Source: Spizellomyces punctatus DAOM BR117
Taxonomy: Eukaryota
Assembly (NCBI GenBank): GCA_000182565.2
Contig: KQ257457.1
Direction: 5' to 3' (one strand)
Length of the DNA: 64,000 nt
The stretch's first letter is position 1; each line of letters starts with the position of its first letter. The notes beneath the pieces were generated by a model that made no database searches, was not told the origin of the DNA, and saw only the letters and a list, made by a program, of their open reading frames with translations. Of this stretch, positions 28,059 through 49,311 are shown piece by piece. A program made the translations under genes and the position numbers.

Positions 28059-29440
28059 ATAATGGCTAATTGCGTGGTGTATAAATTGGTATTGTGCGTC
28101 TTCAAAGTATGCTGTAAAAATTGTAAAATGAAAGACTCGGACAGTGGTTACACTTCACCGTCCAACTTGAATTGAAGATTAAGAAAGATATCACTATATC
28201 ATGAACCACCTGTTGTAGCCAGCATTCAGCGAGCTTGTTTTAAACCCGTGCTCGTAACCTGAAGATCTTCAGCGAGGACTCTGATGATTACTTTCACTTT
28301 AAAAGGACACAGCAACAGCACTTTAGCTGACTGCGAAACTGAATACTACGGTGCACAGACGGTAAAACAGTGCACCACTATCGGCCAGCGGAATTATGGA
28401 TTTGGAAAGGCAAAACCACCAAAGAAAATCTCTAGAGTGTGATCGGAATCGGGCCATGAAGAAGATGCGTCAGCAGGCATACTGGAAAACAATGAGTTCG
28501 GCGGCCAGTTTTCACAGAGGAAGCCCATCAGAGAAGAATGGAACAGCCATCAAAGGAGACGAGCTCAACACGGCCTAAAGATTATGGAGAACGTAAAAGC
28601 CGACGATGGAAGGTCGATATCTGGTTGCAGATGGCCAGAGATTATTACCTGTTCTGCAGGTTCTGCAAGCGTCCGACCCCTGCCAATCACACAGTTTGCA
28701 CCAACGAGTATTTCTGAAAAGCGGGAGTTCGATGTCTGCGAACTATGGCACTATAGGCAAACACTGGCTCTGTCCGTCGTGTCAGCAAATTCTCACTTAA
28801 ATAAGGTGAGATTGGATATCGTCTGAAGTACACTATCTCATATGAGCTTGTGTGGGCACTCAATTTGACGAATAATTATACAGAATATGTGAATGTGAAT
28901 ATTGAAAATTGCCATTCAAGGTTGTTACTTTTTGTGCGATATGTCAAGCTAACGAGACTGTCGTTCTACAGTGGCATTTTTCGGACAAATATTTGCGACA
29001 ACGTTCTGAGTTTCCGCTCTTGTACAGATGGATGAATATATCGAGCTTGAGCTTCGAAAGCGATACGAAACTTAAGAAAGTATAAGTGGCTGGAGCGTCT
29101 GGCAGCCTAACCACCTCGGGCCATGCTATGCACCCGTCTGATCAAGGCACGATTGCACCCGACACTAAAATGCATCATGGTGACCCCTTCTATTGAACAC
29201 TTAAAAGTTTCCGGGAAGGAAAACGCCAGGTGAAAATGCTTGTACAAAATACTCAACAGCTTTCCATAAACTGGGAAAATTACAGAAAATGGTCTGAGAA
29301 CATCCGTTATATAATTCAGAGATATAACCAAAAAGACTGTCGATATACTCGCTAACATTGCTTGCAGGTTTAGGACCAATCCGCGTAGCTAAGCACTTGT
29401 TTGGGAGACAGCACGCAAAAAGGCCTATAACTCCTACATA

Positions 29441-29468
29441 GTGCGGAGCCGGTGGGTATTGGCACTAG
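29441..29468 (+). repeat. Left TIR of Fanzor element
   Basis: GTGCGGAGCCGGTGGGTATTGGCACTAG, the exact reverse complement of 47174-47201; preceded by CATA (29437-29440). Confidence 0.97.
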
Positions 29469-29778: not shown

Positions 29779-31146
29779 ATGCTGCCAAAGAAAAAGCAAA
29801 AGCTTGAAAAACCTACTTGCTTACATACCTGTAACAAGACTTCCTTTGCAAAAGCTTTCTTGCCAAACGAGATCTATCGCCAATGGCTTCTAGATTACAT
29901 CGCCATCATCCATCAACTCGCCGACCATGCTTCCCACGCTCTCAAATTCTACATCCTATCTGCACCAACCTTCACCATGAACGAGGAGACCATCGAAGCA
30001 ATTCTCTATCTTCTCAACAAGGGGGAGGCTTGGCATCCAAGAAAGGAAGCAAAGAAGGCATGGCGGGATTGTTTGCTGCCATATGTTCAACGGTACTGCC
30101 AAATCATCAGCTTCGTTCACCCAAATCTATGAGGTGAGCAGCAATCAGTCAATTACCTGACAGCGAGTATGATGGCGAACCTGAAAGTCAACGTTCAAGA
30201 GCATTTCATGCAGATGCTCCTTCAGTATATCAATCTGCGGCTCGATGTGAAGGGACAGAAGCAGCGACTGCCACCGAAAAGCGATGCACGAAAGGCTTTC
30301 TTTGCTTGGCTACGCTACATGAAGTCAATTTTCCTTTTTGATATCATGCCCGAGTCGCTTGATGACTTGACTGCTGAAGAGAATGAACTTCTAGAAGAGA
30401 TTTGGTCCCTTAACATTCCCCTTTCTGATGACCAGCCACTCGCATATTCCGTTGCTGTAGACCCTCTCGCATTCTTTCCTGCATACTGCAAACTCTCTGG
30501 GCTGTATGAACGACATGGCTTCCGTCGGTTCAGTGCCATTCCACTACGTCAATCCCTCATCCAAAGCCATGTGCGGATCGACACCATCATCCTCTACTCT
30601 CACCTTCTTTGCATCACGCGACGAGAAGCGGAAACTGTTGAAAAGGTCGATTTATGGTTGCGCGTCTGTAATCTGCGGAACAAGGCTTTTAGATCTCGTC
30701 GTGGAATGTGTTTTGAAGGCTCGATCACCACGGATGGAACCTCGGTGTCTGTATACCTAAAGCACCCAGAAGCAGCAGACAAGTATGGAAAGCGCGGAGT
30801 GAGAAAGTCAGCAAAGAGTTTAGAGGACGAAGTTAAAGCGCAATACATGGAGAAAAACTTACCTGCTTGTCGAGCAGCAGAGAATGTTGTCGTTATCGAC
30901 CCAAACAAGCGCGATCTTCTCTACTGCCAAGACAGCCTTGGTACTACATTCCGTTACACCGCAAACCAGCGAGCCATGGAGACAGGTAGCCGCCGAATTG
31001 CAAGGGAGTGGGAAGCAATGAAAGCCGGCGGTATTGACCTCATAGAATCACGAATACCATCTCACAAGACGATGAACCTCATGGACTTTACTCGCTACCT
31101 TCTTGTTTGCCGCGCTGATTGGGATCATCGCAAGGAGTTCTACTCC
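29779..31146 (+). pseudogene. Fanzor1 (TnpB-like RNA-guided nuclease), 5' part
   Basis: NLS-like PKKKQK. ORFs 29779-30132 and 30169+ are in the same frame, separated only by TGA at 30130-30132. Contains GSITTDGTSVSV and RuvC-I VVIDPN (Asp codon 30898-30900). Closely resembles SpuFz1 as recalled. Interrupted at EFYS| by an LTR. Confidence 0.95.
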
Positions 31147-31718
31147 TGTAGCGAACGACTCTGATAAACCGGTTCGCTCAAAGGCATCAGGTGACCACGA
31201 TTGAGGTTTCCGCAATTGTAACCTAAGCTTCGAAACCCCTAAGATCAAACTCGGTTCTGGGCTACACCAGCGCAGCATGAAGGATACATTATGCAGCCAT
31301 GATCGATCATGGCGATGGTCCGAGATGGGAAGATTGGACGCCGCCACCCTAATGAAGGCTATGGAAACTAGTGTAGATGTTACCGTAGCATATTCTTGTA
31401 TAAAAAGAGGAATTCAATAAAATAAGTCAGTGGCCAGAAGCCGTAGCGACAAAAAATCCCCACAACTAGCTTCTCAACCCCAATCCTAGGTTAACAGGAA
31501 CCTAACAGAGCGCTTCAATGGCCTGATCACCTGCACTGAAGCCTCTAAATCCTGCTCGGTTCACAACTAACCGACTCTCCTTGCCTCTCGCCCTCAAGTT
31601 GCTACTGACGCCCAAAGAAAGGATTTGGAGACTACGATTCCTAGTACGGACACCCACACAACCTGCTAGGAGACCCAAGTTGTCTTTACCGTAGTCTACC
31701 AACAAAAAATCCATTACA
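31147..31718 (+). repeat. 5' LTR of element A
   Basis: TGTAGCGAAC...CCATTACA; collinear with 46030-46601. Confidence 0.96.
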
Positions 31719-31872
31719 TGGTGGAGAAGCGCGATGAACTGCCTTCCCCTCTCAAATTCAGCTGAAAACCTTATTCGGTCATACCGAAACTCTTGCGCAA
31801 ACCGAGATCCGCTCAGGTAGCTACTCGGAAACCTTTTCTCTCGTTTCAGAAACAGACTTCACGAAACCGAGA

Positions 31873-34800
31873 ATGATGCTGGTCGAACGCTCTCCAACGC
31901 GAGGCCGCTCACCTGTGATCCAGACTCGTAGTCAGGGTCCTGCGGAGGACATCGAAGTCCCTCCTGCAACACGCCCAAGGCATTCAGGGACCACTTCTGT
32001 CGAACCGGAAGCCCCTAACTTGGCCACGATGGCCTCTGAAGTGGCAGCGTTAAAAGAAGACATTGCCAGCTCGACTGCTGCAATGCAGTTGGCAACTCAA
32101 AATCTTACGGAACAGCTTCATAGGCTTTCCGAACATCAGACAGTGGTGGATGAGCACCTCGCACGAGCCTTAGAAGCCCTAGCGCATCGCCCGCTGCCTG
32201 AACAACCTCTCATAGCACGAGCTACAAGAGAATGGTCCGCAACCCCGTGGGAAACGTCGCACACACCAAGGGAGTGTACCGAACCAAGTTTTTCAGGTCC
32301 AGTGCCTCCAATCCAAGTGCCAGCGGCCCCGTGGGCCAGCGACACCAAGGTCGATTCCTTGAAAGCAAAGGACGTACCCAAGTTTACAGGCAAAAGAAAC
32401 CAAGACATTGAAGAATGGCTCAACAAAGTCCAACTTCTTCAAAACGTTAGCGCAACGTCAGATGCCAGGATGGTACAGCTCCTACCAGCCATGATAGCCG
32501 AGAAAACCCCTGCCGATGCTTGGTTTTACACTCTGGAAGCCCAGGAAACTTGCTCGTGGACCTGGAAAAGGTGGAAAGAAGAACTGCTTCGAGAGTTCCG
32601 AGATCCCCTAACCGAGTCCAAGTGCAAAACCGAATATGTGCACTGCCACGTGAACCCCAAAGAATTTTGCAGCTTTCTCGCATTCATTGACCACAAAACT
32701 CATCTCCAGCGCCTCGCATACGGCGACCGGGCAAACATAGAATGTCCCGCTGACCAGCATTTTGACCTAATAGTTGAACAATTGCCCAGCGACATCCAAA
32801 TCATGGTCAAATCCTGTAACGTCACGAACCTGACCAAATTAAAAGACTTCCTGCGCCTTTATTTTGGCTCTGATGACACCAGAAAATGAGACCCTTGCTA
32901 CAGCGGTGCTGCTGAAGCTCAGAAGAAGTCACAAAAGACCGGAACTGACAAAGGCCCTAAGCAGATGGCTCAACATAAAACCGGAAACCCCGAAAAGGGT
33001 TGCGACGGTCCTCAGAAGATGGTTCCGGACCCCAACAAGGAACCACCAACACCCTGCAAATTCTGTCAGAAAAAGCATTGGAATGTTTTCTGCTGGCAGA
33101 ACCCGAACCGAAAAGATCCTGAAGATGGAAAGAAAGGACCATACAGAGCACCCACGCCCGCAGGTTGGAAACCCAAACAGGAGTCCAAGAAGTCTTACAT
33201 AGTGGAGCTGGACTCGATGTCCGCTACCACCGAGACTCTTTTTTTGGCTTCGGAACTGGAAAGGACAGCTGCCGCTAATCAAGGATTCCACACCATTGGA
33301 TTCTTTCATTCACCCAAGCACTTGGAATCAACAATTTTGATGACCGCACCTCTTTCCGAGGTCATGGAGACTAAGGAAGAGGACCCCCGCATGCCCATGC
33401 AGGGCTGGGACCAAGTCTGGAACAACATAGCCATCATCTGGGGCACCCTGCAAGTGGCTCTGATGATGGGCAACAACCCCCGCGCGCTCAGCTTCTTTGC
33501 CAAAGAACTGAAGCAAGGCGCCGGGCACCTCGGGAACGACCCCTACGCAGTCGCGTGGAGTTCCCACCACCTCTACATTGCTGCCGCAGCCGAAGCTGAC
33601 AAGGATCGAATCCTGCGAAAAGTCCGAGAAGATGGTACCCCTCATTTGATCCTCCTTGCCTGGATAAGGCTCGATGAGCATGAGAAATTCTTGATGTGGA
33701 GCTCCGAAGATCCTGTTATCTTTGATTCTTACACCAACCTGCAACTGGTGGCATTTCTCCTGACAGGCAATATCATTCGCTCAGACTATTATTATCATCG
33801 CAGAAACCCCAAATTTCTGCACATTAAAGACCATCCACGTCTCCAAAGACACGAAGAGAGTGAATGGACGCGTATAGTCATGCTGGCTATCGAACAAGTT
33901 GCTCGCCAGAATAAAACAACAAAACCACAAAACAACAAATCTAGAGAGCACTTTGAGAGTGCGATCAAGGCTATGGAAGCAACAATTAACGACATTGCGC
34001 CCCATTTCGAGGTCGCGGTGCCTTCCATCAACGCCTTCTACTTGGTAGATTTAGGCAATGTACTCAAAAGCCAGACCAAGACCCAAACGCAGCCTTGCTG
34101 GATGCTAGCCATCATCGCTCAGCTCTGGGCACCTGTGGTACTAGACACAGGAGCCTGCGAGTCTCTGGTTTCTGACACATACCAGGGCCTTCTGTTCTCC
34201 GAAACCAATTTGCAGGATGCAGAAACGATGGCTTTCAAAGGCATTGGTGGATGTATCTCATCTACCAAGACAGTATGCCTCGAAACTTCCCTCAGAGGCC
34301 GCGGAGGAGAATACCTGACTTTCCGCGCCTATTTCCGAGTCATTGCATATGGGAAACCTCTCATCATCCTAGCCAACAATGTTCTGGGACATTTGAAACT
34401 CCAAACCTTGGTTCAGGAACCCCCGTTACCCAGTTTCATGGTGATGCTCAAGAATCCGGACATCCTTATCCCTTGCTCCATAACAGATGAGCTGGACACT
34501 GATCACATGCGCGGCACGCCATACAAGACCAAGCAGGGTGAATTCATGAAGGATGTGTCAATGCCACAGCTGACCAAAGCCAAAGCTCAGAAGTCTAGAT
34601 TAACCATGTTAATCACGGGACAGACGCGTGTGGCAGCCCAAACTTTTCTCATCGAAAACCCTCTTGAGGCCACCGCTGCTAGCTCAACGGCCCTGTTAGG
34701 CCTCAAACTGTCCACCGCGACCCATAATTCGGTTGCGGACCCCGAAGAGAACATTTCCAAAGAAGAATGGCAGACACTTCGGAACAAATGGAACCTTGAC

Positions 34801-37800
34801 TCTACGGAGAGGGCTCCAGGGGCCTTCAAAGCCCAATTAAAAGACACGGAACATTTCCACGTCAATCTCAAGCAACCCAAACCCGTGGTCTGGGCCCTAA
34901 TCAACATTCTACGACACTTCCATCAAGCCTTCAGCTATGAGGGTCATCTCATAGGGAACTACACCAAGATTCCTTATGCACCTCGATTTATCTCGGCTCC
35001 GCCACCCCTTTCGAGGCCACGGTCGTACTCTCCGTTGGAGCGGACAGCCCTTGAGACGGAGCGAGACACCATGATGGGGCTTCAGAGGTGGAAACGAACC
35101 ACCAAAGTAACCTTCGCCAGCGATCCTGTTATCATTCGCTATGCAGACAAACCCCCGCGGGTAGCCTTCGACTATCGCCGAGCCAATGACTGCATGGCCT
35201 GGGACCCATATCCCTTTCCCATCATGCTCGACATCCTGAACTGGATCGTTGCAGTCCCATTCCGATACATATCGGGAGGTGACGCAAACAAAGGATTTTA
35301 CCAAATCGCCATCACCGATGCATCGGTACGCAAATGGCTCGTGATCAGACTCCATGACGGCATCTACGAACCACTCTTTATGCCCTTCGGACCCAAGACT
35401 GCCCCTTCGCACTTCTGTCAGGTGATGGACGACACCTTGGGTCCCTCCAAATGGTGAAATATCAACAACTTTGTCGATGATATCCACACACGAGCGGAGA
35501 CAGCCGCGGAAGCCCTAGATGCCATCGCGGACTGGCTCAACTGCTTTTCCAGAGCCAAACTCACCCTAAGACTCGACAAGTGTCAATGGCTCTTTCACCA
35601 GCTCACGGCTCTCGGTTTCGTTGCCTCCTCTCAGGGTCTCGCTACCGATCCAGACAAGGTCGCAACCATAGTCGATTGGCCACGACCCAAATTCATAGGT
35701 GACCTATGGTCCTTTGTGGGTCTCCTAGGGTTCTACGCCCAATTCATCCCCCGCTACGCGGAACTCGTCCGACCCCTGCAAGACACTATCCAAGAGGGCG
35801 TTCGCGAATACTGAGACCTTAAAAAGGGTCGCGCTGACCCAAAGAAAGGTGCTGAAAAGCTCAATTCACCATCCATGCTCGACACGGCGGTGGCCCCTAC
35901 AATCACAGCCACTGGAGCCCGATTTGAGGTTTCGCAACATCCGAAATCTAGCTCCTCAGACCTACCGGCAGTCAATCTATGCCAATCATCGTTGGCGGAC
36001 TTGCCCATTGACCCCTTTTGTGTCAGATGCCTTGCTCGCAAGCGCCCCGACCAAGGTCTGCGCAGATTTATCGCGAAGCGTGAAGTTTCATGGACCGATT
36101 CCCGAAACTCTGCCTTTGCAGCTGCCAAGCAGGCTCTGACAACAGCTCCAGTGCTTGTGGCACCCAGAAAAGGGTTCCCCTACACCCTTCACAGTGACGC
36201 TTCCTACACAGCATTTAATGTCACGCTCAAACAGTTACAGCCAGATGCTTCTAAACGCCCACTGTGCTACCATTCCCGAGGCACCACCACCTCGGAAAAG
36301 AAGGCCCCCCCCCGTCAAACTCAAGGCCGGATGCCTCATTTGGGGCCTCGGAAAACTCCGCCCATACCTCGAAGGCCTGCCTTTCACGGTCATTACCGAT
36401 CACCGAGCTCTTTTGTGGCTCGCTAAATACAAAGGCGAGAACCGTAAGCTTCTCCGCTGGGCCCTCGATCTTAGTTACTGGTCCGAATGGATGACAATCA
36501 TTCACAAACCAGGACGTTTTCACATTGTCGCTGATACACTTTCACGGCTACTAGGAGCGGAAACCCTCCTCTGCTCCACCGCGACCCAAATATGGGTGGC
36601 GGAACACGGAAGACGACGGCTGCGCACCACACCAGCGGCTCTCGCACCTTCCTCAACACTGGCAGATGCCGCCTTCCGTCTGGCATTACAGCCTGCACTC
36701 ATTGCCGCCATCCGTGCTGGCCTCACCGGCCAGCTCCACCCCATAGCCCAACAGGCCTGCACGCTCCTATGGGAGACCAGCCCCAACACCTACACTACAG
36801 CCGACGCGCGCTTTCTTCAGGACTGGCAACGTGCAGATAACCTGCTGTGGCACCATTTTTCAGTCTCCGAAGACCTTTGGCGCCTCTACGTGCCCCCTGC
36901 TTGCACCCCCAAGGTGCGCAAGCTTTTTCACGAGGGGGGAGGACACTTCAGATTCGAAAGAACCTATGCCAGAGCCGCAGCGCAAGTCTGGTGGCCAAAG
37001 ATGGCACAAGATTTCAGAAAACACTGCGCAGGATGTGAAATCTGTCAACACTCAAAAAGGGTACCGCAACTGATTCCGGGGTTGCTGAAACCCATACCAC
37101 CAGCTCCGGGACACTGGACAGTCATCACGACTGACTTTGTAACCAAGCTCCCACTTACTTCCAGAGGGTACGACGCCTTTTGGCTAATAGCATGTAAATG
37201 CTCAAAGAGGATCCATGTATGGCCCCTCAAGAGCACCGCGACAGCTATTCAGGTCGCGGAACTCTTTATAGAATGCTATGTCCCATTGCACGGCATTCCA
37301 GAGACTATTATCTCGGACCGCGACCCCAAGTTTACGAGTCAATTTTGGCAGGAGGTCTGCAAAAACCTAAAGATTAATCAAGAGCTCACCACAGCCTACC
37401 ACCCTCAAGGTGATGGACAATCAGAGAGAGACAACGCAACGGTCTTGCAGGTCCTTACCACAGTGGTCAACACCCAATTAGACGACTGGGACACCTTTCT
37501 TCCGGTTGCGGAATTCATTATCAACGATACGGTACACGAGGCGACAAAAATGACGCGATTCAGAATGGACCTAGGCTATGAGCCCCACAATCCACTGGCG
37601 GATATTGTCAAAAGGCCATCAGAAACCAGAAATGCAGATGCGGAAGAGCTCTGTAAACACCTCGGTGACCTAAACATCCTTATCCAAGATCTGATGATCG
37701 AAGCCCAGGATTCGCAGAAAAGATATTATGATTTATCGCGACGACATTTGGAGTTCCGGAGAGGAGATAAGGTGCTTCTGAGCACAAAAAACCTAGCAGG

Positions 37801-38087
37801 GTATGAGTCCAAGATCGCTCCGAAATGGCTGGGACCAGTCACAGTGACTGACTGTAACCCTCTCCGTGACAACTACAAGTTAAAACTGCCAGACAAGATG
37901 AGACGACTTCATCCATGGTTTCACATATTGAAATTACATCCGTACCAGAAGCCTGTCGACGCCAAAACTGAGGAAAAGGTCGCGGAAGCACAAGCGGAGG
38001 ATTCCGATGCTTCAGAGGGCGAGTTTGAAGTGGAAGTGATAGTAGACCATCGAACCAGGTGCGGAAAATGTCAATTTCGAATACATT
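31873..38087 (+). pseudogene. gag-pol of element A (premature stops and one frameshift)
   Basis: One frame broken by TGA at 32887, 35455 and 35812 and by a shift at the C9 run 36305-36313. Gag VPKFTG..DIEEWL, protease VLDTGA, RT FDYRRAN...MPFG...FVDD, RNase H DAS...ITDH, integrase HHCC/TDFV/ISDRD/GQSE, start of chromodomain EFEVEVIVDH. Confidence 0.92.
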
Positions 38088-38641
38088 TGTGACAGAATTC
38101 TTCTGTCAGTGCTATGGTTATACTGGTTAGATGTGGTTCCAAACTAGTGGTCACATGACTTTGCTGATGGTGTCAGCATTCATTTGACCAGAATTAGATA
38201 AATAAGCAGATTTAGCCATTTCTGGCTAAATTAGATGAGTATCCTGACACACTAGCATCTGCCCCTTTTAATCAAGTGGCACAGTGTATTTAGGATGACT
38301 TCTCTCACTTGTGATTGGCCATAAATGGTGCAATAGGCTGACAAATAGTTTAGGATGACATGTACAAGATCTGATTGGTTGCAAATGGTGCAATAGGCTG
38401 ACAAATAGTTTAGGATGACATGTATGAGTTCTGATTGGTTGCAAATGGTGCAATAGGCTGACAAATAGTTTAGGATGACATGTATGAGTTCTGATTGGGT
38501 AGTTAGGATATAGCATTTGTCAGCCCCTTTTGTCTATAAAAAGAGGACCTCTCTGAGGCCCCTCAAAGGAAAAAAATAACAAGTAGTAACCAAGTCTTCC
38601 CTAGTTTTCTGTTGTCTTCTTGTCCCTGCTAGCCTGTTACA
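38088..38641 (+). repeat. 5' LTR of element B (contains ~3.5 copies of a 60-bp tandem repeat at ~38289-38500)
   Basis: Appears identical to 44149-44702; the unit tttaggatgacatgta...caaatggtgcaataggctgacaaatag recurs with period 60. Confidence 0.96.
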
Positions 38642-39048
38642 TGGTAGCACCACCTTAGACAACAACCCCAGACTCTTAGACCTTCTGTGAGAGATCAGAA
38701 GCTAAGATCCCCAGACCCCCAGACCCTGCCCTAGACCTTCTGAGTAATATCAGAAGACCAACAGACCCCAGACCCCAGACCCTGCCCTAGTCCTTCTGAG
38801 TAATATCAGAAGACCCCTGCCTCTTATCCCAGGCCCAACTTATGCCCAGAACCCCCCCTCAAGGACTCCTACAGACCAGCCCACACCACCCCATACCACA
38901 AACCTACCCCCAGCACAACCTCCAGAACTACCACCAGACACACCACTTGGTTAGCATCAGAAGCTCTGATAAAACAGATAGAGCTTTTCTATTGTGGGAT
39001 TGTGAAGAAGCTGTAGTGTCCCCCTGTATCCTCCCCACCAGTTGTACT

Positions 39049-39235
39049 TGCAAGTAACATTGCATAGTTTGGGCCTGTGACCCACCCTGTCTTGACTGCA
39101 AGTAACATTGCATCTCTTGGGCCTGTGACCCACCCTATCTTGACTGCAAGTAACATTGCATCTCTTGGGCCTGTGACCCACCCTATCTTGACTGCAAGTA
39201 ACATTGCATCTCTTGGGCCTGTGACCCACCCTATT
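39049..39235 (+). repeat. 48-bp tandem repeat x4 in leader of element B
   Basis: tgcaagtaacattgcatctcttgggcctgtgacccaccctatcttgac at 39049, 39097, 39145 and 39193. Confidence 0.93.
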
Positions 39236-39288
39236 GTTATTGTTACAAGTTATATTGTAACTACCCAAGACTCCATCCCATTACCACC

Positions 39289-40200
39289 ATGGCCAGCCAG
39301 GAAGAGATTCTCTTCAACACCATTGCTGAGCTTGACATAGACCAGGTCAGGCAGGAGCTTTATCAAGCAAAGCTCCAGCAGCTGAACTCCACCACACCAG
39401 CCCCTGCTCAGTACCAACCCAGAGTAGATAAATCCCTGGTAAAAGTCCTCCAAAGCAAGTTGAAGCCCTACAAAGGCAACAGGAATGTCGAAGAGATTAG
39501 GACATACCTCCTCAGACTTGAAGAGTACTTCCAGGCAGCTGCAGATCTATCACCAGAAGGCCAACTGTTAGTAGCCACCACCTACTTGGAACTCCATGCT
39601 GAAGTCTGGTGGCAAAGCCATGTCAAGAACCACCCAGTAGGATCCCCTCTCAGAATCCAGTCTTGGGACCAGTTCAAGAGAGCCCTTCAAGAGAACTTCC
39701 TCCCAGCAAATGCCACCAGAGCAGCAAGAGACCAGTTGGCCAGGCTCAAACAACAAGGCTCAGTAAAAGAGTACCTAAACCAGTTCAATACTTTATGCCT
39801 TCAGGTGGATGACTTGTCAGAAGCTGAAAAGTTAGACAAGTTTATCAGAGGGCTTAAACCCAGGGTTCAGGAACAACTGGAGCTCAACCCCACCAGTACC
39901 ATCAACTTAGCCACAGCTGCAGCAACAGCTGATAGGATTGACCAGATCCAGTTCAGCTACCAGAGAAGAAGCCAGGCCACCAGCTACTACTCCCCCAAGA
40001 CTGAGAACTCTGGAGTAGTCCCTATGGAGATAGATAGTATATCCACCAACTCTGGGAAGCCTCTCTCCAAACTCACTGAGGCTGAGAAGACTGAGCTCAG
40101 AAAGAAGGGAGCCTGTTTCAGGTGCAGAAAACCAGGCCATATTGCCCCCCTATGCCCCTTGAAGACCAAGCAGCAGGGAAATGGCAAGCAGACTCAGTAG
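39289..40200 (+). CDS. gag: Gag of element B
   Basis: Retrotransposon gag core (AEVWW...SWDQFKRAL...[10 protein letters not shown]) and CCHC knuckle [14 protein letters not shown]. Confidence 0.95.
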
Positions 40201-43200
40201 AAGATAGAGGTTCTGCCTCTACTGGGGAAGATATCAAGAACCACCACCCTGACACCCACCACCTGGTACACTCTCCTGTTATTCAACCCTTGGACCTATT
40301 GGACCCACCTGAAACCACCCCTGAGACTTTAACTATCCATGGACTTTACCTGGAACCCCAGAGAACCCCAGCATCCCAGAGAACCCCAGAAACCCAGAGA
40401 ATCCCAGAATCCCAGAGAACCCCAGAAACCCAGAAAATCCCAGGACCCCTGAGAACCCCAGAATCCCAGAGAACCCCAGAAACCCAGAGAACCCCAGAAC
40501 CCCAGAGAACCCCAGAAACCCAGAGAACCCCAGAACCCCAGAGAACCCTAGAACCCCAGAAAACCCAGGAACCCCAGAGAACCCCAGAACCCCAGACCAC
40601 CCAGGCCACCTACCAAGAAAGCAAGATCCATGTAGTAGAGGTGGCTCCATACTCTTTAAGTACCCCCAAAGGGCCAAGGATTCCCCAGAGTCACTTGCTG
40701 ACTGTGCAAGGTAGAATCCAAGGAATCCCAGTAACCATTCTCCTGGATAATGGGGCAAACCAACTCTATGTGTCACAGTCCTTTGTCAAGAAGGCACAAC
40801 TGGTGACTCATTCTCTCCCTGGAGCAGAAATCTCTATGGCTGATGACAGAAAGCACCAAGAAATAGGCTTTGTCAAAGGTCTTCAGTACTCAGTAGGAAC
40901 CTACACAGAACAGTCAGACTTTATAGTAGCCCCAATCAAGTTTGACTTGATCTTGGGTATACCTTGGTTTGCCTGGAGGAATCCCAGTATCAACTACAAC
41001 AAGAACACTGTGACCTTCACCACTTCCCAGTACCCCAGAGTCAGATGGTTTGTTAAGCAGGCCAGCTCTTCCAACAAATCCCAGAAGTCCAATCTTATCA
41101 CCATGGTATCAGCAAAGATGTTGGCCAGAACACTGAAGAAGAGGACAGCAACAGCTTTTGCTGTGTATCTCAAGAACCCTCAAGATACCAGCACCCCTCC
41201 AGACACCATGGATTCCAAAGTCACCAAGCTTCTTGAAAACTATCAAGATGTCTTTGCTGAAGAGCTTCCCCCAGGACTTCCCCCTGAGAGATCAGTAGAT
41301 CACAGAATTGAACTCAGTGACCCCAACCAGACCCCCTGGAGACCAACCTACCACCTCTCTTCTTTGGAGTTGGAAGAACTGAGGAAGCAGCTTTCAGAGC
41401 TTCTGGAGGCAGGCCACATCAGACCATCGAAGAGCCCATTTGGAGCACCTATCCTCTTTGTTAAGAAGAAAGAAGGTTCTTTGAGGATGTGTGTGGACTA
41501 CAGGGCTCTGAATAAAATCACCATCAAGAACAGATATCCCCTCCCTAGGATTGATGAGCTGATGGATAGGCTGAATGGAGCCCAGGTGTTTACCAAGCTA
41601 GATCTGAAGTCAGGCTATTACCAGATCAGAGTCCACCCAGAAGACATCCCCAAGACAGCCTTCAGAACCAGATATGGTCACTTTGAGTTCCTGGTCATGT
41701 CCTTTGGAATGACCAATGCCCCAGCCACTTTCATGACTTTGATGAATGATGTCCTTAGACCCTTCTTGGACATCTTTGTTATTGTCTACCTAGATGACAT
41801 CCTCATCTACTCCAAGACCCCAGAAGATCACCTGGACCACCTCAAGCAGGTTCTGCAAGCCCTCAGGCAGAACAAGCTGTATGCCAACCCCAGCAAGTGC
41901 CAGTTCTTCAAGCAAGAAGTAGAGTTTCTTGGCTATGTAGTCTCACATGAAGGAGTCAAGCTTGATCCCAAGAAAGTGCAGACTGTTCAAGAATGGCCCA
42001 CCCCTCAGAGTGTCACTGAAGTCAGACAGTTCATGGGCCTGGTGAACTACTTCCATAGCTTTCTGAAGGACCTGGCAGAGCAAGCTGCACCATTGACAGA
42101 CCTGTTGAGAAATGACAAGCCTTGGACCTGGTCTGAACCTCAGGAGAAAGCTTTTCAGCAGCTGAAGGATATGGTCACCAAAGCCCCTGTACTCAGACCC
42201 TTTGACCCAGCCTTGCCTACCACTGTCTTCCCTGATGCCTCAGGCTATGCAGTTGGTGCATGGCTTGGACAGGATGATGGGAAAGGCATGAGACCAGTTG
42301 CCTACCACTCCAGGAAGATGGCCCCAGCAGAGACCAGATATGACACCAGAGAACAAGAGCTGTTAGCCATCCATGATGCCCTCAGAGTTTGGAGGCCCTA
42401 CCTGCAAGGAACCCCCTTCAAAGTTATCTCAGACCACCAGTCCCTCAAGTGGCTACAGAACCAGCCCTTCTTGACCAGAAGACAAGCCAGATGGGTCATG
42501 AATTTCCAATCTTTTGACTTTGAGATTGGCTATGGCCCAGGAAGACTCCACACAGTGGCAGACATCCTGTCTAGAAGACCAGACCTGGCCCCAAGATGCA
42601 TCAAGTGCAAGGCCTTGGTGACAGCAGAGTTGAATGCTGTGACCCACACCACCAGCACCCTTCAAGAGAGATTGAAGACCAGTACCACAGAAGACCCAGA
42701 ACTTCAAGAGCTCATCCAAGCTTTGGATGACCCCAGGAGACCAGAAGACCAGCAACAAAGGCTCAAGTACCTCAGCCATCAAGATGGGTTACTCTATTTC
42801 CAGGACAGGATCTTTGTTCCTAGTGACCCAGACCTAAGGTTGAGCCTACTCCAAGAAACCCATGACACTCAGTATGCTGGACACTTTGGCATCACCAAGA
42901 CCCATGATGCCCTAGCAAGGCATTACTACTGGCCAAGGATGTACAAGGACATTAAGAAGTATGTCAAGTCTTGTGATTCCTGCCAGAGAAGCAAACCTAG
43001 TCAGCAACCACCAGCAGGCTTGCTGCAGCCCCTCCCAGTACCCAAGACCAGATGGAGCCAGATCTCCATTGACCTGATCCCTGACCTACCCATGACTTCC
43101 TCTGGTCACAATGCCATCTTTGTCATTGTTGACAGATTGTCAAAGAGAGGCCACTTCATCCCTACCACCACCAAAGCCTCAGCCAAGGACCTGGCCCTGC

Positions 43201-44132
43201 TCTTCTTGAAGCACATCTTCAAGCACCATGGCCTCCCAGAAGTGATTGTATCAGACAGAGACACCAAGTTCACCAGTTCATTCTGGTCCAACTTGATGCA
43301 ACTCTTAGGCTGCAACACCCTCCTAGCCACTGCAAGACACCAGCAGACCAATGGACAGGCAGAGAGAACCATCAAGACTTTGAAGATCTACCTGAGAGCT
43401 TTCCTGGAGTACAACATGAAGAATTGGGAAGATCTTCTCCCCTTTGCTGAGTTTGCCTACAACAACAGCATCTCAGAAACCACAGGCTTCACCCCATTCT
43501 ACTTGGAGAATGGCCAGCATCCCAGGACCCCAGCAACACCACCAGGAGAAAGCAATGATCCTGAAGCAACAGACTTCCACCAGTATATTCAGCAACTGCT
43601 TCAAGTAGCCAAGGATAACATGATACTGGCCCAAGAAAGACAAGTTCAGCAAGCCAACAAGTCTCTCAGCAAGGCCCCAAGCTACCCCCTAGGCTCCAAA
43701 GTTTGGCTGTCTAGAGAAGGTATCACCCCAGAAGAAGAAGCCCAGAGGCCAGCCCAGAAACTTCTTCACCCCTGGCTTGGACCTTACAGAATCAAGGCCA
43801 AGGATGAATTTCAGAATTACACCCTGGAGCTCCCCAGCACCATGAAGATTCATCCAGTGTTCCATGTGAGACTCCTCAAGCCTTACCTGGACCCCACAGA
43901 GGACTTCCCTACCAGACCAGTACCCCCTGAGCCTGAGCCAATTATCCAGCAAGGAGAAGAGTTTTGGGAAGTTGAGAAGATTCTGGACCACAAGATCAGA
44001 AGGAAGAAGAATCTCTACCTCATCAAGTGGAAAGGATATCCCTCCTCTCAGAACACCTGGGAACCAGAAGAAAACCTCCTACCCCATGGCAGAGAAATCT
44101 TGAAGGAGTTCCTAGCCCAGAAGGGAGCTTAA
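40122..44132 (+). CDS. pol: Pol of element B (PR-RT-RNaseH-IN-chromodomain), -1 frame relative to gag
   Basis: [39 protein letters not shown]...[19 protein letters not shown]...YLIKWKGY...NTWEPEENL; no stops. Confidence 0.97.
40351..40600 (+). repeat. 18-bp coding minisatellite (TP[E/A][T/P/S]QR)n at N-terminus of Pol B
   Basis: accccagaaacccagaga-like unit repeated ~13 times. Confidence 0.9.
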
Positions 44133-44148
44133 TCTTAAAGTGGGGGAG

Positions 44149-44702
44149 TGTGACAGAATTCTTCTGTCAGTGCTATGGTTATACTGGTTAGATGTGGTTC
44201 CAAACTAGTGGTCACATGACTTTGCTGATGGTGTCAGCATTCATTTGACCAGAATTAGATAAATAAGCAGATTTAGCCATTTCTGGCTAAATTAGATGAG
44301 TATCCTGACACACTAGCATCTGCCCCTTTTAATCAAGTGGCACAGTGTATTTAGGATGACTTCTCTCACTTGTGATTGGCCATAAATGGTGCAATAGGCT
44401 GACAAATAGTTTAGGATGACATGTACAAGATCTGATTGGTTGCAAATGGTGCAATAGGCTGACAAATAGTTTAGGATGACATGTATGAGTTCTGATTGGT
44501 TGCAAATGGTGCAATAGGCTGACAAATAGTTTAGGATGACATGTATGAGTTCTGATTGGGTAGTTAGGATATAGCATTTGTCAGCCCCTTTTGTCTATAA
44601 AAAGAGGACCTCTCTGAGGCCCCTCAAAGGAAAAAAATAACAAGTAGTAACCAAGTCTTCCCTAGTTTTCTGTTGTCTTCTTGTCCCTGCTAGCCTGTTA
44701 CA
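44149..44702 (+). repeat. 3' LTR of element B
   Basis: TGTGACAGAATT...CCTGTTACA, same length and sequence as the 5' LTR. Confidence 0.96.
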
Positions 44703-44706
44703 ACAT

Positions 44707-45972
44707 TGGTCAGGATACCCACCCCATGAGGATACCTGGGAACCAGAGGAAGCCCTAACAGAGGCTTCCGAAGCCTTAGAAGAGTACTGGAGATCCAGAG
44801 CCCCCACTAGCGCACTAGTAGAGGACTCTTTGGTAGTCAGCCTTGCAGGCAACGCCCCGGAAGATACGGCTTACGCTTCCGACCACCAATGCTTCGCGGT
44901 TTATCCGGATGATAGCTCACGTGATAATCACGCCCTCTCTCCAGAAAGAAAACCAGTTTCGCGTGGCTTACCTCACCAGTCGAGAACGCCACACCAAGCC
45001 TCCCGATCATGCTTACGCGCGTCCGAGCTGTCAAAATCAGCCGGCGACGACCTTAAAAGGGCGCCCCTGCTCGCCCCCCCTCTTTTTTCTTCTTCAACTA
45101 CCAACGAACTACTTCCCTTACACACTCACTCTGCTTCGCAAACCCTTTCTATCGACACCGAAACAAAAGCTTTCATTTCCAACACCATGACCACCGATAT
45201 CCGAGGACAACAAGGAGTCAGCATCCTCTCTACCCTTGAGGAAGGCTATCCCTGGTCAGAAGTAAGCGACGCCTTCACTGCCGAGAACTCTATCAAGCGG
45301 CTCGGAGCAGCCATGGCCACCTGGGTCGAAGTTTGGATTCGTGAGTTGTACGAAGACCCAAACAAAACCCTTGAACACTATCGTGGTGAAGATTGGGTGG
45401 TTGACAGGGCTTCAAAGCCTTACGCCACGAGCCAGCCCCTCATGATGCATATCGCGGAGCCCTACAGTAGGGCTTCCGACAGCGGTCAAGCTGCTGTCGG
45501 TATCGTCGCCAATGCAAAAAAGATAGGCAAGAGATTACGGGACGTACCCTGCGCTGCCTGGCTTGATGCTGGGGTCCCTCAACATGCGGCCGGAAACCCC
45601 AAAACGGCCTGCTTCACCCTCTGGCCCGATCACGAGGCCCACGATTTCGCGGACATAGCCATCGAAGCCGCGAGAGCAGTGTTGTTAAAGCTAGCCAATG
45701 CAGCTGAAACCACAGAAGAGCAGCTCCGTCCCAAACATCGGGAGCACGCCTATTACCACTTTCGAGTGGTTAACTTGAAAAGGGCCGCAGAGACGTTCAC
45801 AGCCCTCTACGTAACCCGAGCCAACGGTTCCAGGACACCTGGAACCCCGGCTCCGGAAGCCACTGACCAAATTTGGTTCTGCGCGAACGTCATGGGGCGC
45901 GCTACCATAATCTGGACGATCAACGAAGACAGCCTTGAAGCTGACGACGACTATCCAGTTGCGTCATGGTAG
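44707..45972 (+). pseudogene. 3' remainder of element A pol: second half of chromodomain plus long unknown extension or extra ORF
   Basis: Rejoining across the TSD gives FRIH/WSGYPPHEDTWEPEEAL. The frame stays open to 45972, with an internal ACCATG at 45187. Confidence 0.85.
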
Positions 45973-46029
45973 AAGCGAGGTTCAGGCACTCACAGACGAG
46001 TCGCCGAACCTTCTTTTTCGAAGGGGGGA

Positions 46030-46601
46030 TGTAGCGAATGACTCTGATAAACCGGTTCGCTCAAAGGCATCAGGTGACCACGATTGAGGTTTCTGCAATT
46101 GTAACCTAAGCTTCGAAACCCCTAAGATCAAACTCGGTTCTGGGCTACACCAGCGCAGCGTGAAGGATACGTTACGCAGCCATGATCGATCATGGCGATG
46201 GTCCGAGATGGGAAGATCAGACGCCGCCACCCTAATGAAGGCTACGGAAACTAGTGTAGACGTTACCATAGCATATTCTTGTATAAAAAGAGGAATTCAA
46301 TAAAATAAGTTGGCAGCCAGAAGCCGTAGTGACAAAAAATCCCCACAACTAGCTTCTCAACCCCAATCCTAGGTTAACAGGAACCTAACAGAGCGCTTCA
46401 ACGGCCTGATCACCCGCACTGAAGCCTCTAAATCCTGCTCGGTTCACAACTAACTGACTCTCCTTGCCTCTTGCCCTCAAGTCACTACCGATGCCCAAAG
46501 AAAGGATTTGGAGACTACGATTCCTAGTACGGACACCCACACAACCTGCTAGGAGACCCAAGTTGTCTTTACCATAGTCTACCAACAAAAAATCCGTTAC
46601 A
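46030..46601 (+). repeat. 3' LTR of element A
   Basis: TGTAGCGAAT...CCGTTACA, 572 bp, ~25 transitions versus the 5' LTR. Confidence 0.96.
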
Positions 46602-46605
46602 CTCC

Positions 46606-47115
46606 CATCCTGCTCATACTCGATGGAAATGGCACTCTTTCATCAATCGGCAGCAAAGCGAATCAGACCTCATAAGTAACATGCACAACAAGTATGGTGA
46701 AAACTTTACTGTTGTGATGGGTGATTGGAGTGACGCTGGTCGAACTGCGAGATTTCAGACCTCATCAAAGACAATAGGCTGGTGCACTGTCTTCAAGCAG
46801 AACAGGATCAACTGCTTCCTTCTCGACGAGTACAAGACCTCATCTGTCTGCCCTCACTGTTCATCCGATGACTTCCTTGAAAAAAGCTTCAAAACACGAC
46901 CTCATTCAAGACCTTGGCGACGACGAGAAGGCAAGATTGAAAAAGTCCATGGATTGCTGGGTTGTACCAACCCTAACTGTCAGCAAGCCTGGACGATGCG
47001 CTACTGGAATCGAGATACGCTGAGCACCTGCAATATGCTGATAATCGTGCAATCAATGTTGGATGGACACAGTAGACCAGAAGTGTTCAGCAGGAGTGTT
47101 CCAGCCGTAGCTTAG
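46606..47115 (+). pseudogene. Fanzor1, 3' part (RuvC-II, Zn finger, RuvC-III)
   Basis: Continues in frame as HPAHTRWKWHSFINRQ; VVMGDWS, LLDEYKTS (Glu 46828-46830), CPHC...CTNPNC, WNRD (Asp 47014-47016), stop 47113-47115. Confidence 0.95.
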
Positions 47116-47129
47116 ATTGGTTAGATTAG

Positions 47130-47218
47130 GTTTTCCGAGCCGGTTGTCGCCGGTTCAATCCCTGGTGCGGGTGCTAGTGCCAATACCCACCGGCTCCGCA
47201 CTACCTTTCCTGGACTTG
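47130..47218 (+). ncRNA. Fanzor omegaRNA (scaffold ~47130-47203 plus ~15-nt flanking guide)
   Basis: Lies between the Fanzor stop and the right end. GAGCCGGT (47137-47144) can pair with ACCGGCTC (47189-47196), GTGCGG (47165-47170) with CCGCAC (47196-47201), and GGGTG with TACCC. Position matches known TnpB/Fanzor omegaRNAs; ends are inferred. Confidence 0.85.
47174..47201 (-). repeat. Right TIR of Fanzor element
   Basis: CTAGTGCCAATACCCACCGGCTCCGCAC followed by TA. Confidence 0.97.
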
Positions 47219-49311
47219 AATATAAGATGGGGTCGCTCTGAATCCTATTCGCATATCTATCTAGCTTCAACACACGCTAGTGGTAGTGGTCTATTCTCCT
47301 CGTCTTGCATCTGAAGAACATCATGAGCGACGGAATTTCGGTTAGCTTTGAAATCCTACATTACTTTACTAAACCTGTATGAACTCCATGACGACAGGTT
47401 TCTACTCCTATTTTGGCTATTGTTAACGATAATATCGAACAGTTTCCTTACAGAAATTTTTATTAATGGAGAGTTTGTTCCATTGTTGTCTGGCAAGACA
47501 TTTCCAACCATCGATCCGACGTGAGTCCTTGCCAACGGCCGCCAGCTTTGTATGCCCAGTCATATGTGAGCAGCTACACAAGACTGGAGCCTTTGTGAGT
47601 TGTTGGACAGATGTACGCTGGGATTATCCGCCATCATTCTGCTATCTTACTTTCCATACCAGGTCGTCCCATGGAACTTCCCTTTGATGATGCTGAGATG
47701 GAAGTTGGGCCCTGCATTGGCACAGGCAATACAATTGTTTTAAAGGCATATATGTTACAGATAATTACATATCCCAAAATTCCTTCGGAAGAAACTGGCA
47801 GACATCAAAAAAAAATCCTCTCTTTCCGCGCTCAAAGTCGGCCAATTGACTGCTGAAGCAGAATTCCCACCAGGCGTTATTAATGTACTCTCTGGTTTCG
47901 GGTCCACGGCTGGGTATGCCATTACTCAACATCCTGGTATCAGCAAAGCTCCTTTCACTGGCTCCACAGCTCCACCAGCGGCTGGTTGAAAGGTGCTGAT
48001 GGTAGCCGCCGCGATCAACTCAAGAAGATAGGCTTGAAGCTCGGGGACAGATGCCCCAATATTGTTTTTCGACGATGCAACTTGGAAGAACCGTGCATGC
48101 TGTCTCTACCGCTGACTTTCAAATCATGGACAGGTGTGCTATTCGGGCACTCGCTTGTACATCCAGAATGGACATCTATGAAAGATTTGTCGAGCAATTC
48201 AAATAAAAGATAGCATTATAGCAGATCATATGAGTCAAGAGTTTTGTAGTCTCAACTTCGACTCATATCAGATGGAAATAATAAACCTGGGAAATTGTTT
48301 CCACCCAGAAAACGAACCGTGGATCCGTGGTAGACGCTCTCTAGTATAATCGTGTGCATCGATTTGGGAAAAGAAGTCGCCAAGTGTGGGTATGGAGGGC
48401 ATACTGTTGGCAAACAAGGCTACTTCATCATCTCATATTATCACAGGCGTTAAATATCATATGATTGTCGCCAGAAAGGAGGGTTTTGGCCCTATCGTCG
48501 CTGCCATTCGCTTCAGACCGAGGAAGAGGTCATGCATGAAGCAAATGAAACGAATTACAGGTTGGCAGCTGCAGTCCATTCCCGAGATTTGGTAGGGTAT
48601 TCGGGTGATGGAAATTGTGAAAGAAGGAATAGTGTGGGGTTAATTGTATAGGAAGTATGCAGATGCTCGACGTACCCAATGTTTCCAGTTACGTAGAGGT
48701 AAGTCTTACCTGGGTTTTCTTCGCATAGTTTTTCTATCCCAGCTACTATTGGCAAATTACAAAAACTCGGATGTCGGACGCAAACTGGATGAACAGGTTC
48801 TTCGCGAGTACAGCTTGAATGTACTCCTACGGATTCACACCACTGTTGGCATGTCTAGGTGTAATAAGTCTGTCCTTTTGCTGACCGAGGTGAAATCGGT
48901 CGTCATAAAAGTGAACACTTTGGACCTGGCAACAACCATGCTAGCATTGACAGAAAATGCGGCACTTCACTCCCCTGTCGTTGTCACTTCTTGGCAGAAC
49001 AGTCCGGCGCTTGAATGTGATTATAGTAATGAGAGGTACTGCAATGGACGAATTGAATACGCAGCTCATATGCACACGGATAAGAAGAAAGGGTTATAAA
49101 AGTTGTGAACAGATGCTATGGGTTGGTAAGTTAATGCCAAAGGACGCAGAAACCCCAGCAGAAACCCCAGCAGCGTACCTGCCTTTCCGATCGCTGATGT
49201 AAGCAAGTACCACTGAACTATTGGCTGAACCGCTGTGCGGATGACACGAACGTTTGCATTACGGGCATTGACTGCTAATACCTCATTTTTAACACTTTTT
49301 CAGCCAACGTA

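Follow-up and report, generated by a model that had tools for sequence, protein, structure and literature searches.

Positions 47130 to 47218 of the window (the whole 64,000-nt stretch of Spizellomyces punctatus DAOM BR117 DNA that was analyzed) very likely represent an omegaRNA gene, composed of a 74-nt scaffold and 15 nt of flanking DNA, at the right end of a Spu-1 Fanzor1 transposon. We put the probability of this reading at roughly 0.88, a joint figure for the identification and the sequence logic and not for activity. Both the present locus and its arrangement, with a TAM to the left, a right-flank guide, and a TA included in the scaffold, are already in the literature.

In the sections of Saito et al. 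(2023) consulted (PMC10432273), the locus is "NW_015971544.55 - Loci with Fz" (21,390 bp) of supplementary file 6, a record that annotates both ends and Fanzor pieces covering amino acids 18 to 466 and 461 to 638, and whose right "end" equals window positions 47174 to 47203. The same sections describe 42 Fanzor and 134 ghost loci with 30-nt ends and a CA ahead of the left end, 11 Spu-1 loci that hold Ty3/gypsy or other genes between their ends, and no transposase in any Spu-1 element. They also report a native SpuFz1 RNA of 88 to 90 nt with guides of 14 to 15 nt and a CATA TAM, two omegaRNAs in which a 74- to 75-nt scaffold ending in CGCACTA is followed by 14 variable nucleotides, and SpuFz1 cleavage after bases 16 to 17 and 20 to 21. 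Two premises of the preliminary description, namely, that the RNA reads through the element end to take flanking DNA as its guide and that the SpuFz1 TAM is 5'-CATA, agree with these data, in which the 88- to 90-nt RNAs extend 14 to 15 nt past the scaffold (PMC10432273). With the other SpuFz1/Spu-1 loci of this strain, the present locus shares the 30-nt ends, the CA, the CATA TAM, and a scaffold (74 to 75 nt) that follows the stop codon and leads into a predicted 14- to 15-nt flank guide. Unlike standard SpuFz1 loci, this one carries a nuclease gene broken by a TGA (codon 126) and by a Ty3/gypsy nest, and it is one of the paper's 11 gene-bearing loci. The features of the locus, in window coordinates, are as follows.

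29437 to 29440, plus strand: CATA, made up of the conserved CA and the left TA (target-site duplication); equal to the published SpuFz1 TAM.
29441 to 29468, plus strand: left inverted repeat, 28 nt; with the TA at 29439 to 29440 it corresponds to the authors' 30-nt "end".
29779 to 31146, plus strand: 5' piece of the Fanzor1 gene (authors' Fanzor amino acids 18 to 466), with an in-frame TGA at 30130 to 30132 (codon 126).
31147 to 46601, plus strand: Ty3/gypsy LTR retrotransposon 1, within the Fanzor gene; LTRs at 31147 to 31718 and 46030 to 46601.
38088 to 44702, plus strand: Ty3/gypsy chromovirus 2, nested in retrotransposon 1; LTRs at 38088 to 38641 and 44149 to 44702.
46606 to 47115, plus strand: 3' piece of the Fanzor1 gene (authors' Fanzor amino acids 461 to 638), with RuvC-II/III and the zinc finger; stop codon TAG at 47113 to 47115.
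47130 to 47203, plus strand: putative omegaRNA scaffold, 74 nt, with two stems; stem 2 has an 8-nt loop and includes the right repeat and the right TA.
47174 to 47203, minus strand: right inverted repeat (47174 to 47201, 28 nt) and TA (47202 to 47203); the authors' "end" feature.
47204 to 47218, plus strand: flank predicted to serve as the 15-nt guide; also the target of the same RNA in the unoccupied site.

The ends of the element are sharply defined. The left flank reads CTCCTA-CA-TA up to its last base at 29440 (CATA at 29437 to 29440), and the first letters of the element, GTGCGG, start at 29441; the right end runs through CCGCAC to 47201 and is followed by TA (47202 to 47203) and then by CCTTTCCTGGACTTG (47204 to 47218). 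The letters and coordinates in the preliminary description were all confirmed in the sequence. The 64-kb window contains exactly two copies of the 28-nt terminal repeat, which match at 28/28 positions in inverted orientation, and 0 of 100 shuffled controls gave even one match to it. A TA lies outside the repeat on both sides, and the arms including the TA span 33 nt with 97% identity. Terminal inverted repeats and a TA duplication are traits of the Tc1/mariner/IS630 type, and the Spu-1 element has both. Insertion took place at a TA preceded by CA, a dinucleotide found before 7.3% of the TA sites in the window; its presence at a single locus is not beyond chance. A metagenome scan with the right repeat gave 0 matches.

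In the rebuilt unoccupied site, the left flank ending in CTCCTACATA is joined directly to CCTTTCC (that is, CATA followed by CCTTTCC). At the occupied right junction, the target is preceded by ACTA, and the TAM and target are contiguous only without the element. Two readings of the TA, as a target-site duplication or as a right TA that belongs to an element inserted 3' of CATA, lead to an identical rebuilt site. Only an arrangement in which the element owns both TAs would give a different empty site, and it would be at odds with the measured TAM. That the guide equals the right flank holds by construction for any read-through RNA, so the match is uninformative alone. Within the 64-kb window, the 15-nt guide has a single site at up to 2 mismatches. 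In the sections consulted, Yoon et al. (2023; PMC10711439) include the repeat and the duplication in the Fanzor1 RNA scaffold, with the RNA extending about 15 nt beyond the duplication, and a 2026 review (PMC13565253) reads the 5' duplication as part of the TAM and places the 3' duplication in the scaffold. The reRNAs of insect-virus Fanzor1 such as SfAV, from the work of Yoon et al., have this arrangement of repeat and duplication in the scaffold with about 15 nt beyond the duplication, as predicted here, but they belong to another transposon family and host and have an unrelated scaffold sequence.

The nuclease gene of this copy is dead, broken by the TGA at codon 126 and by a retrotransposon nest after approximately codon 456. 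Its translated pieces (29779 to 30129, 30133 to 31146, and 46606 to 47112) match SpuFz1 of PDB 8gkh with E values of 9e-61, 5e-181, and 1e-104, respectively, and the RuvC catalytic residues D383, E541, and D606 are retained (numbering offset of 394). Codon 126 encodes arginine in other copies, and because the base after the TGA is G, the stop very probably arose from a CGA-to-TGA change at a CpG. Among the other loci seen in the sections of supplementary file 6 consulted, none shows an insertion that interrupts the Fanzor gene at amino acids 461 to 466; one has a frameshift at 466/467 without an insert. No transposase was found between the repeats, where the content consists only of the Fanzor pieces and the two Ty3/gypsy elements; a transposase may be supplied in trans. 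As a separate observation, the window has A at position 46885, and G was present in 285 of 287 and 273 of 273 X21 DNA reads, across the full depth of the X1 contigs, and in the two RNA reads; the A reflects either a misassembly within a repeat or a difference between strains.

The scaffold agrees with published omegaRNAs in position, sequence, and predicted structure. Its first base, 47130, agrees with their 5' start. In comparisons made by eye, as were all those with the published RNAs and with the consensus of loose read ends, 70 of 74 positions match the published ID19 RNA, with differences at positions 1, 10, 12, and 61. By the same procedure, the scaffold is identical (74/74) to 2 of the 17 plus-strand scaffold-bearing right ends sampled in supplementary file 6, and it is the majority sequence of the family. 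The tested RNAs, ID19 and ID20, differ from the scaffold here at 4 positions; an additional base is inserted in ID20. The predicted fold has a free energy of -35.4 kcal/mol (z = -2.98), and 1 of 200 shuffled sequences folded as well. Stem 1 is predicted at 47137 to 47156, and the 8-nt loop of the second predicted stem agrees with what Saito et al. describe for canonical stem 2. Base pairing in the prediction survives the changes at positions 10, 12, and 61 (G-U for A-U, C-G for U-G, and C-G for U-G, respectively), and a comparison of stem 1 with the ghost scaffolds by eye showed a two-sided change from CCGG/CCGG to CCAG/CTGG. At no scaffold position was the window's base in the minority among X21 DNA reads; the variants seen were G to A at 47139 (approximately 20%), A to T at 47158 (approximately 10%), and C to T at 47190 (approximately 49%). 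The impression given in the preliminary description that the scaffold looks intact is thus backed by its likeness to ID19, by the 74/74 loci, by the fold, and by the DNA reads. All 7 of its CpGs are retained, and the adjacent LTRs have lost 12 to 13 of 38 each (P of approximately 0.05 to 0.07); as a sign of constraint, this intactness is weak.

Several minor observations concern the same region. A search of Rfam matched no omegaRNA family. The minus strand at 47258 to 47347 bears a sub-threshold likeness to SNORD35 (22.5 bits, where the gathering score is 36; E value of 0.012) that is probably due to chance, and RNA depth over this stretch was 0 in X20. By eye, GGTTCAATCC at 47152 to 47161 in the scaffold resembles a tRNA-type B box.

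Ghost Spu-1 elements are a close parallel to a copy of this kind. They, too, carry an omegaRNA without a working nuclease gene in cis and depend on Fanzor from elsewhere, and they have the same layout of CA and repeat. They differ in being approximately 550 nt long, in having repeats that differ at seven positions, and in a 3-nt bulge in stem 2, and the present copy is canonical, with the 8-nt loop.

Sequencing reads placed on 46800 to 47600 locate the boundary of the repeated family. The depth of X21 DNA reads was 214 to 224 per direction in the bin 47178 to 47204 and 20 to 27 in the next bin, a drop of approximately tenfold, which indicates that the repeated family stops at 47203/47204. Two X1 contigs diverge from the window at the same point, and, compared by eye, their further sequence corresponds to the right flanks found at two other loci of supplementary file 6. 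For RNA, about 6/100 of run X20 (raw 60-nt reads) was used. Plus-strand depth was 48 in the bin 47178 to 47204, a value common to dozens of copies; it fell to 0 in all of the next eight bins (47205 to 47420), in which X21 DNA depth was 20 to 50 per direction. No X20 read ran from the scaffold into the flank CCTTTCCTGGACTT, with only about one read expected from a single locus in this ordinary cDNA library, whose 60-nt reads are ill-suited to a 90-nt RNA. This result weighs slightly against an omegaRNA that crosses the right end here. No reads of X24, presumed to be an RNA run, were placed on 46800 to 47600.

The X20 reads also contained a very abundant plus-sense RNA that matches only 41 nt of the window (47127 to 47167), with a depth of approximately 3,255 in the bin 47124 to 47150 and 1,757 in the bin 47151 to 47177. 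It has T instead of A at 47158 in 2,042 of 2,215 reads (approximately 10% of DNA reads have this T). On both sides it is unlike the window, with 2,640 loose ends before 47126 and 1,175 behind 47167 (0.98 agreement), and its continuation, compared by eye, differs from the canonical scaffold and from each of the four ghost scaffolds listed. This RNA may represent a third, highly expressed omegaRNA-like family.

If the omegaRNA is made, a route to restoring the element can be proposed. Intact copies could supply the Fanzor that loads RNA from the dead copy, as for ghost RNAs; the loaded complex would cut the unoccupied or scarlessly vacated site 16 to 21 nt beyond the insertion point, on its right side; and the break would be repaired with the occupied copy as template, restoring the whole 17.8 kb. 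Loading of this RNA in trans is plausible, since SpuFz1 is active with ghost scaffolds in human cells. Transcription of the omegaRNA at the present locus is a possibility that falls somewhat short of even odds, and we regard it as unlikely that Fanzor-driven restoration operates here in nature. The preliminary description proposed that the complex would cut the empty or excised allele and spare the occupied one. The empty allele stands as a target, since TAM and target are contiguous only in an unoccupied site; the excised allele would qualify only if excision were scarless. Cut-and-paste elements that duplicate TA normally leave both TAs and a footprint on excision. Such a footprint, with both TAs, would part the TAM from the target, so the vacated site would not be cut, and nothing known creates a vacated Spu-1 site.

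Restorative homing by TnpB and omegaRNA has reportedly been demonstrated by experiment for IS200/IS605 elements of the ISDra2 and IS608 types (Karvelis 2021 and Meers 2023). The shared points are an RNA that extends outward past the right end (here by prediction), a TAM that is the motif to the left of the element, and a joining of TAM and target only when the site is vacant. IS200/IS605 elements, in contrast, have no inverted repeats and no duplication and are excised scarlessly as single strands by TnpA, whereas Spu-1 has 28-nt inverted repeats with TA, and its homing is proposed here from sequence. In the sections of the 2026 review consulted (PMC13565253), experimental restorative homing is listed only for TnpB and IscB. 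Among the papers and sections surveyed, we found no primary paper showing Fanzor homing or a Spu-1 transposase, and none of the terms checked on duplication, homing, or biological role appears in Xu et al. (2024). The present locus would be convenient for testing Fanzor homing: the guide is unique in the window, the dead nuclease means that any activity would have to come from Fanzor made elsewhere, and an insert of 17.8 kb would make conversion of the empty allele simple to detect.

The strongest alternative to an active omegaRNA gene is that the locus is a silent fossil, only the footprint of an old insertion, whose omegaRNA is either not produced or of no consequence and which is undergoing the same decay as its nuclease gene. 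We give this reading an even chance. The gene has been killed by a stop codon and by a nested insertion of 15.5 kb; because the 3' piece, and with it the gene that would supply the omegaRNA precursor, is severed from its own start by that distance, the precursor transcript has no source. X20 RNA depth is 0 past 47204, methylation-type decay acts on the region (all 25 differences between the LTRs of retrotransposon 1 are CpG transitions), and the repeats and scaffold are not significantly better preserved than expected (P of approximately 0.05 to 0.07). Set against a fossil are the lack of any private change in the scaffold or repeats, the activity of ghost scaffolds from nuclease-less loci with SpuFz1 in the sections of PMC10432273 consulted, and the poor suitability of the X20 library for a 90-nt RNA.

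A second alternative concerns the TAM. The 8-nt repeat motif and its complement were searched in the sections of supplementary file 6 consulted (PMC10432273), a procedure that takes in only junctions with the motif inside one printed ten-base block. The 5'-CATA on which the preliminary description relied is found at other copies as well: 10 of the 11 left junctions sampled, including the present locus, read CATA, the exception being TATG (binomial P of approximately 4e-11; 9 of 10 and P of approximately 5e-10 without the present locus). All 18 right junctions in this sample (17 on the plus strand and 1 reverse-complemented) read TA followed by dissimilar sequence. The mirror motif, TG after the right TA, was present at 4 of 19 right junctions (present locus included) compared with a background of 7.3% (P = 0.045). 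The difference between CA at 10 of 11 left junctions and TG at 4 of 19 right junctions was significant in this sample (Fisher P = 3.8e-4), although the repeats are identical.

The CA before the left TA may reflect the target choice of the transposase alone, with the nuclease TAM having evolved to match, as in IS200/IS605; it would then be no sign that Fanzor selects which insertions persist. This is a real possibility, but one that we hold to be appreciably less than even. In TnpB systems, according to the sections of the review consulted, the TAM equals the target motif of the transposase (PMC13565253), and the slight excess of TG after the right TA hints at a weak palindromic preference. Against such an origin stands the strongly one-sided preference, since a symmetric transposase dimer acting on identical repeats would be expected to choose symmetrically. 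The converse, that the TAM is retained by selection after insertion and not by the transposase, is suggested by this asymmetry between ends with identical repeats and by a nuclease-dead copy that keeps a consensus scaffold with 7 CpGs beside LTRs missing a third of theirs; we consider it improbable, somewhat more so than restoration at the present locus. If it were true, Fanzor provided in trans would be what keeps dead and ghost copies in the genome, and homing at the present locus would take two Ty3/gypsy retrotransposons along as a 15-kb cargo. The one-sided CA and the retained CpGs are the sole hints that go slightly beyond the published papers.

It is also conceivable, with a low probability, that the RNA is made for a role other than homing, such as directing Fanzor in trans to sites or transposons elsewhere. 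The discussion of Saito et al., as far as consulted (PMC10432273), raises both trans-acting help and a guide repertoire drawn from ghost loci, and no transposase is linked to Spu-1; the guide, however, has no second match with 2 or fewer mismatches in the window.

The rebuilt empty site presupposes that both ends belong to one insertion. The distance between the repeats, 17.8 kb, is eight times that of the usual Spu-1 element of approximately 2.1 kb. Retrotransposon 1 has 572-nt LTRs with 25 differences and TG..CA ends, a 4-nt duplication (CTCC at 31143 to 31146 and 46602 to 46605), a primer-binding-like site, and a polypurine tract. Chromovirus 2, which splits the chromodomain region of retrotransposon 1, has identical 554-nt LTRs and a 5-nt duplication (ACATT). 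When retrotransposon 1 and one CTCC are taken out, the reading frame becomes RKEFYS-HPAHTRWKW, exactly as in SpuFz1. Because removal of the nested retrotransposon restores the Fanzor frame, the left and right ends derive from one insertion, and the 17.8 kb is a single Spu-1 element. The element-free allele drawn in the preliminary description, CTCCTA-CATA joined to the flank, holds on the same grounds.

That the two ends instead come from different elements, for example, by recombination between copies, so that the rebuilt empty site never existed, is very improbable: a 2-nt TA duplication is insufficient to prove that the ends belong together, the element is eight times the usual length, and the 600 nt on either side hold no gene whose frame could test the contiguity of the flanks (the longest open frame across the rebuilt junction, 98 amino acids, is uninformative on this point), but the extra length is fully explained by the nest of two LTR retrotransposons, both flanked by target duplications of their own, the Fanzor frame is exactly restored across retrotransposon 1, the authors place amino acids 18 to 466 and 461 to 638 between one pair of ends in the record consulted, and both repeats belong to the same subfamily variant. 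An origin from two half elements was rejected on the strength of the restored frame and the authors' annotation.

The two retrotransposons differ in how they have lost CpGs. The 25 differences between the LTRs of retrotransposon 1 consist entirely of CpG-site transitions, with no other substitution in 572 nt, and four CpG sites are mutated in both LTRs; the LTR divergence gauges methylation-type decay and not ordinary age. Chromovirus 2 has 2 CpGs in 6,615 nt (observed/expected ratio of 0.01), and because its LTRs are identical, this loss is older than the insertion and comes from the source copy of the family. Between its gag and protease, at 40317 to 40638, chromovirus 2 carries a run of 18-nt repeats in the polyprotein frame, with spacing that alternates between 8 and 10 nt, encoding peptide repeats of the QRTPE(T/P) type.
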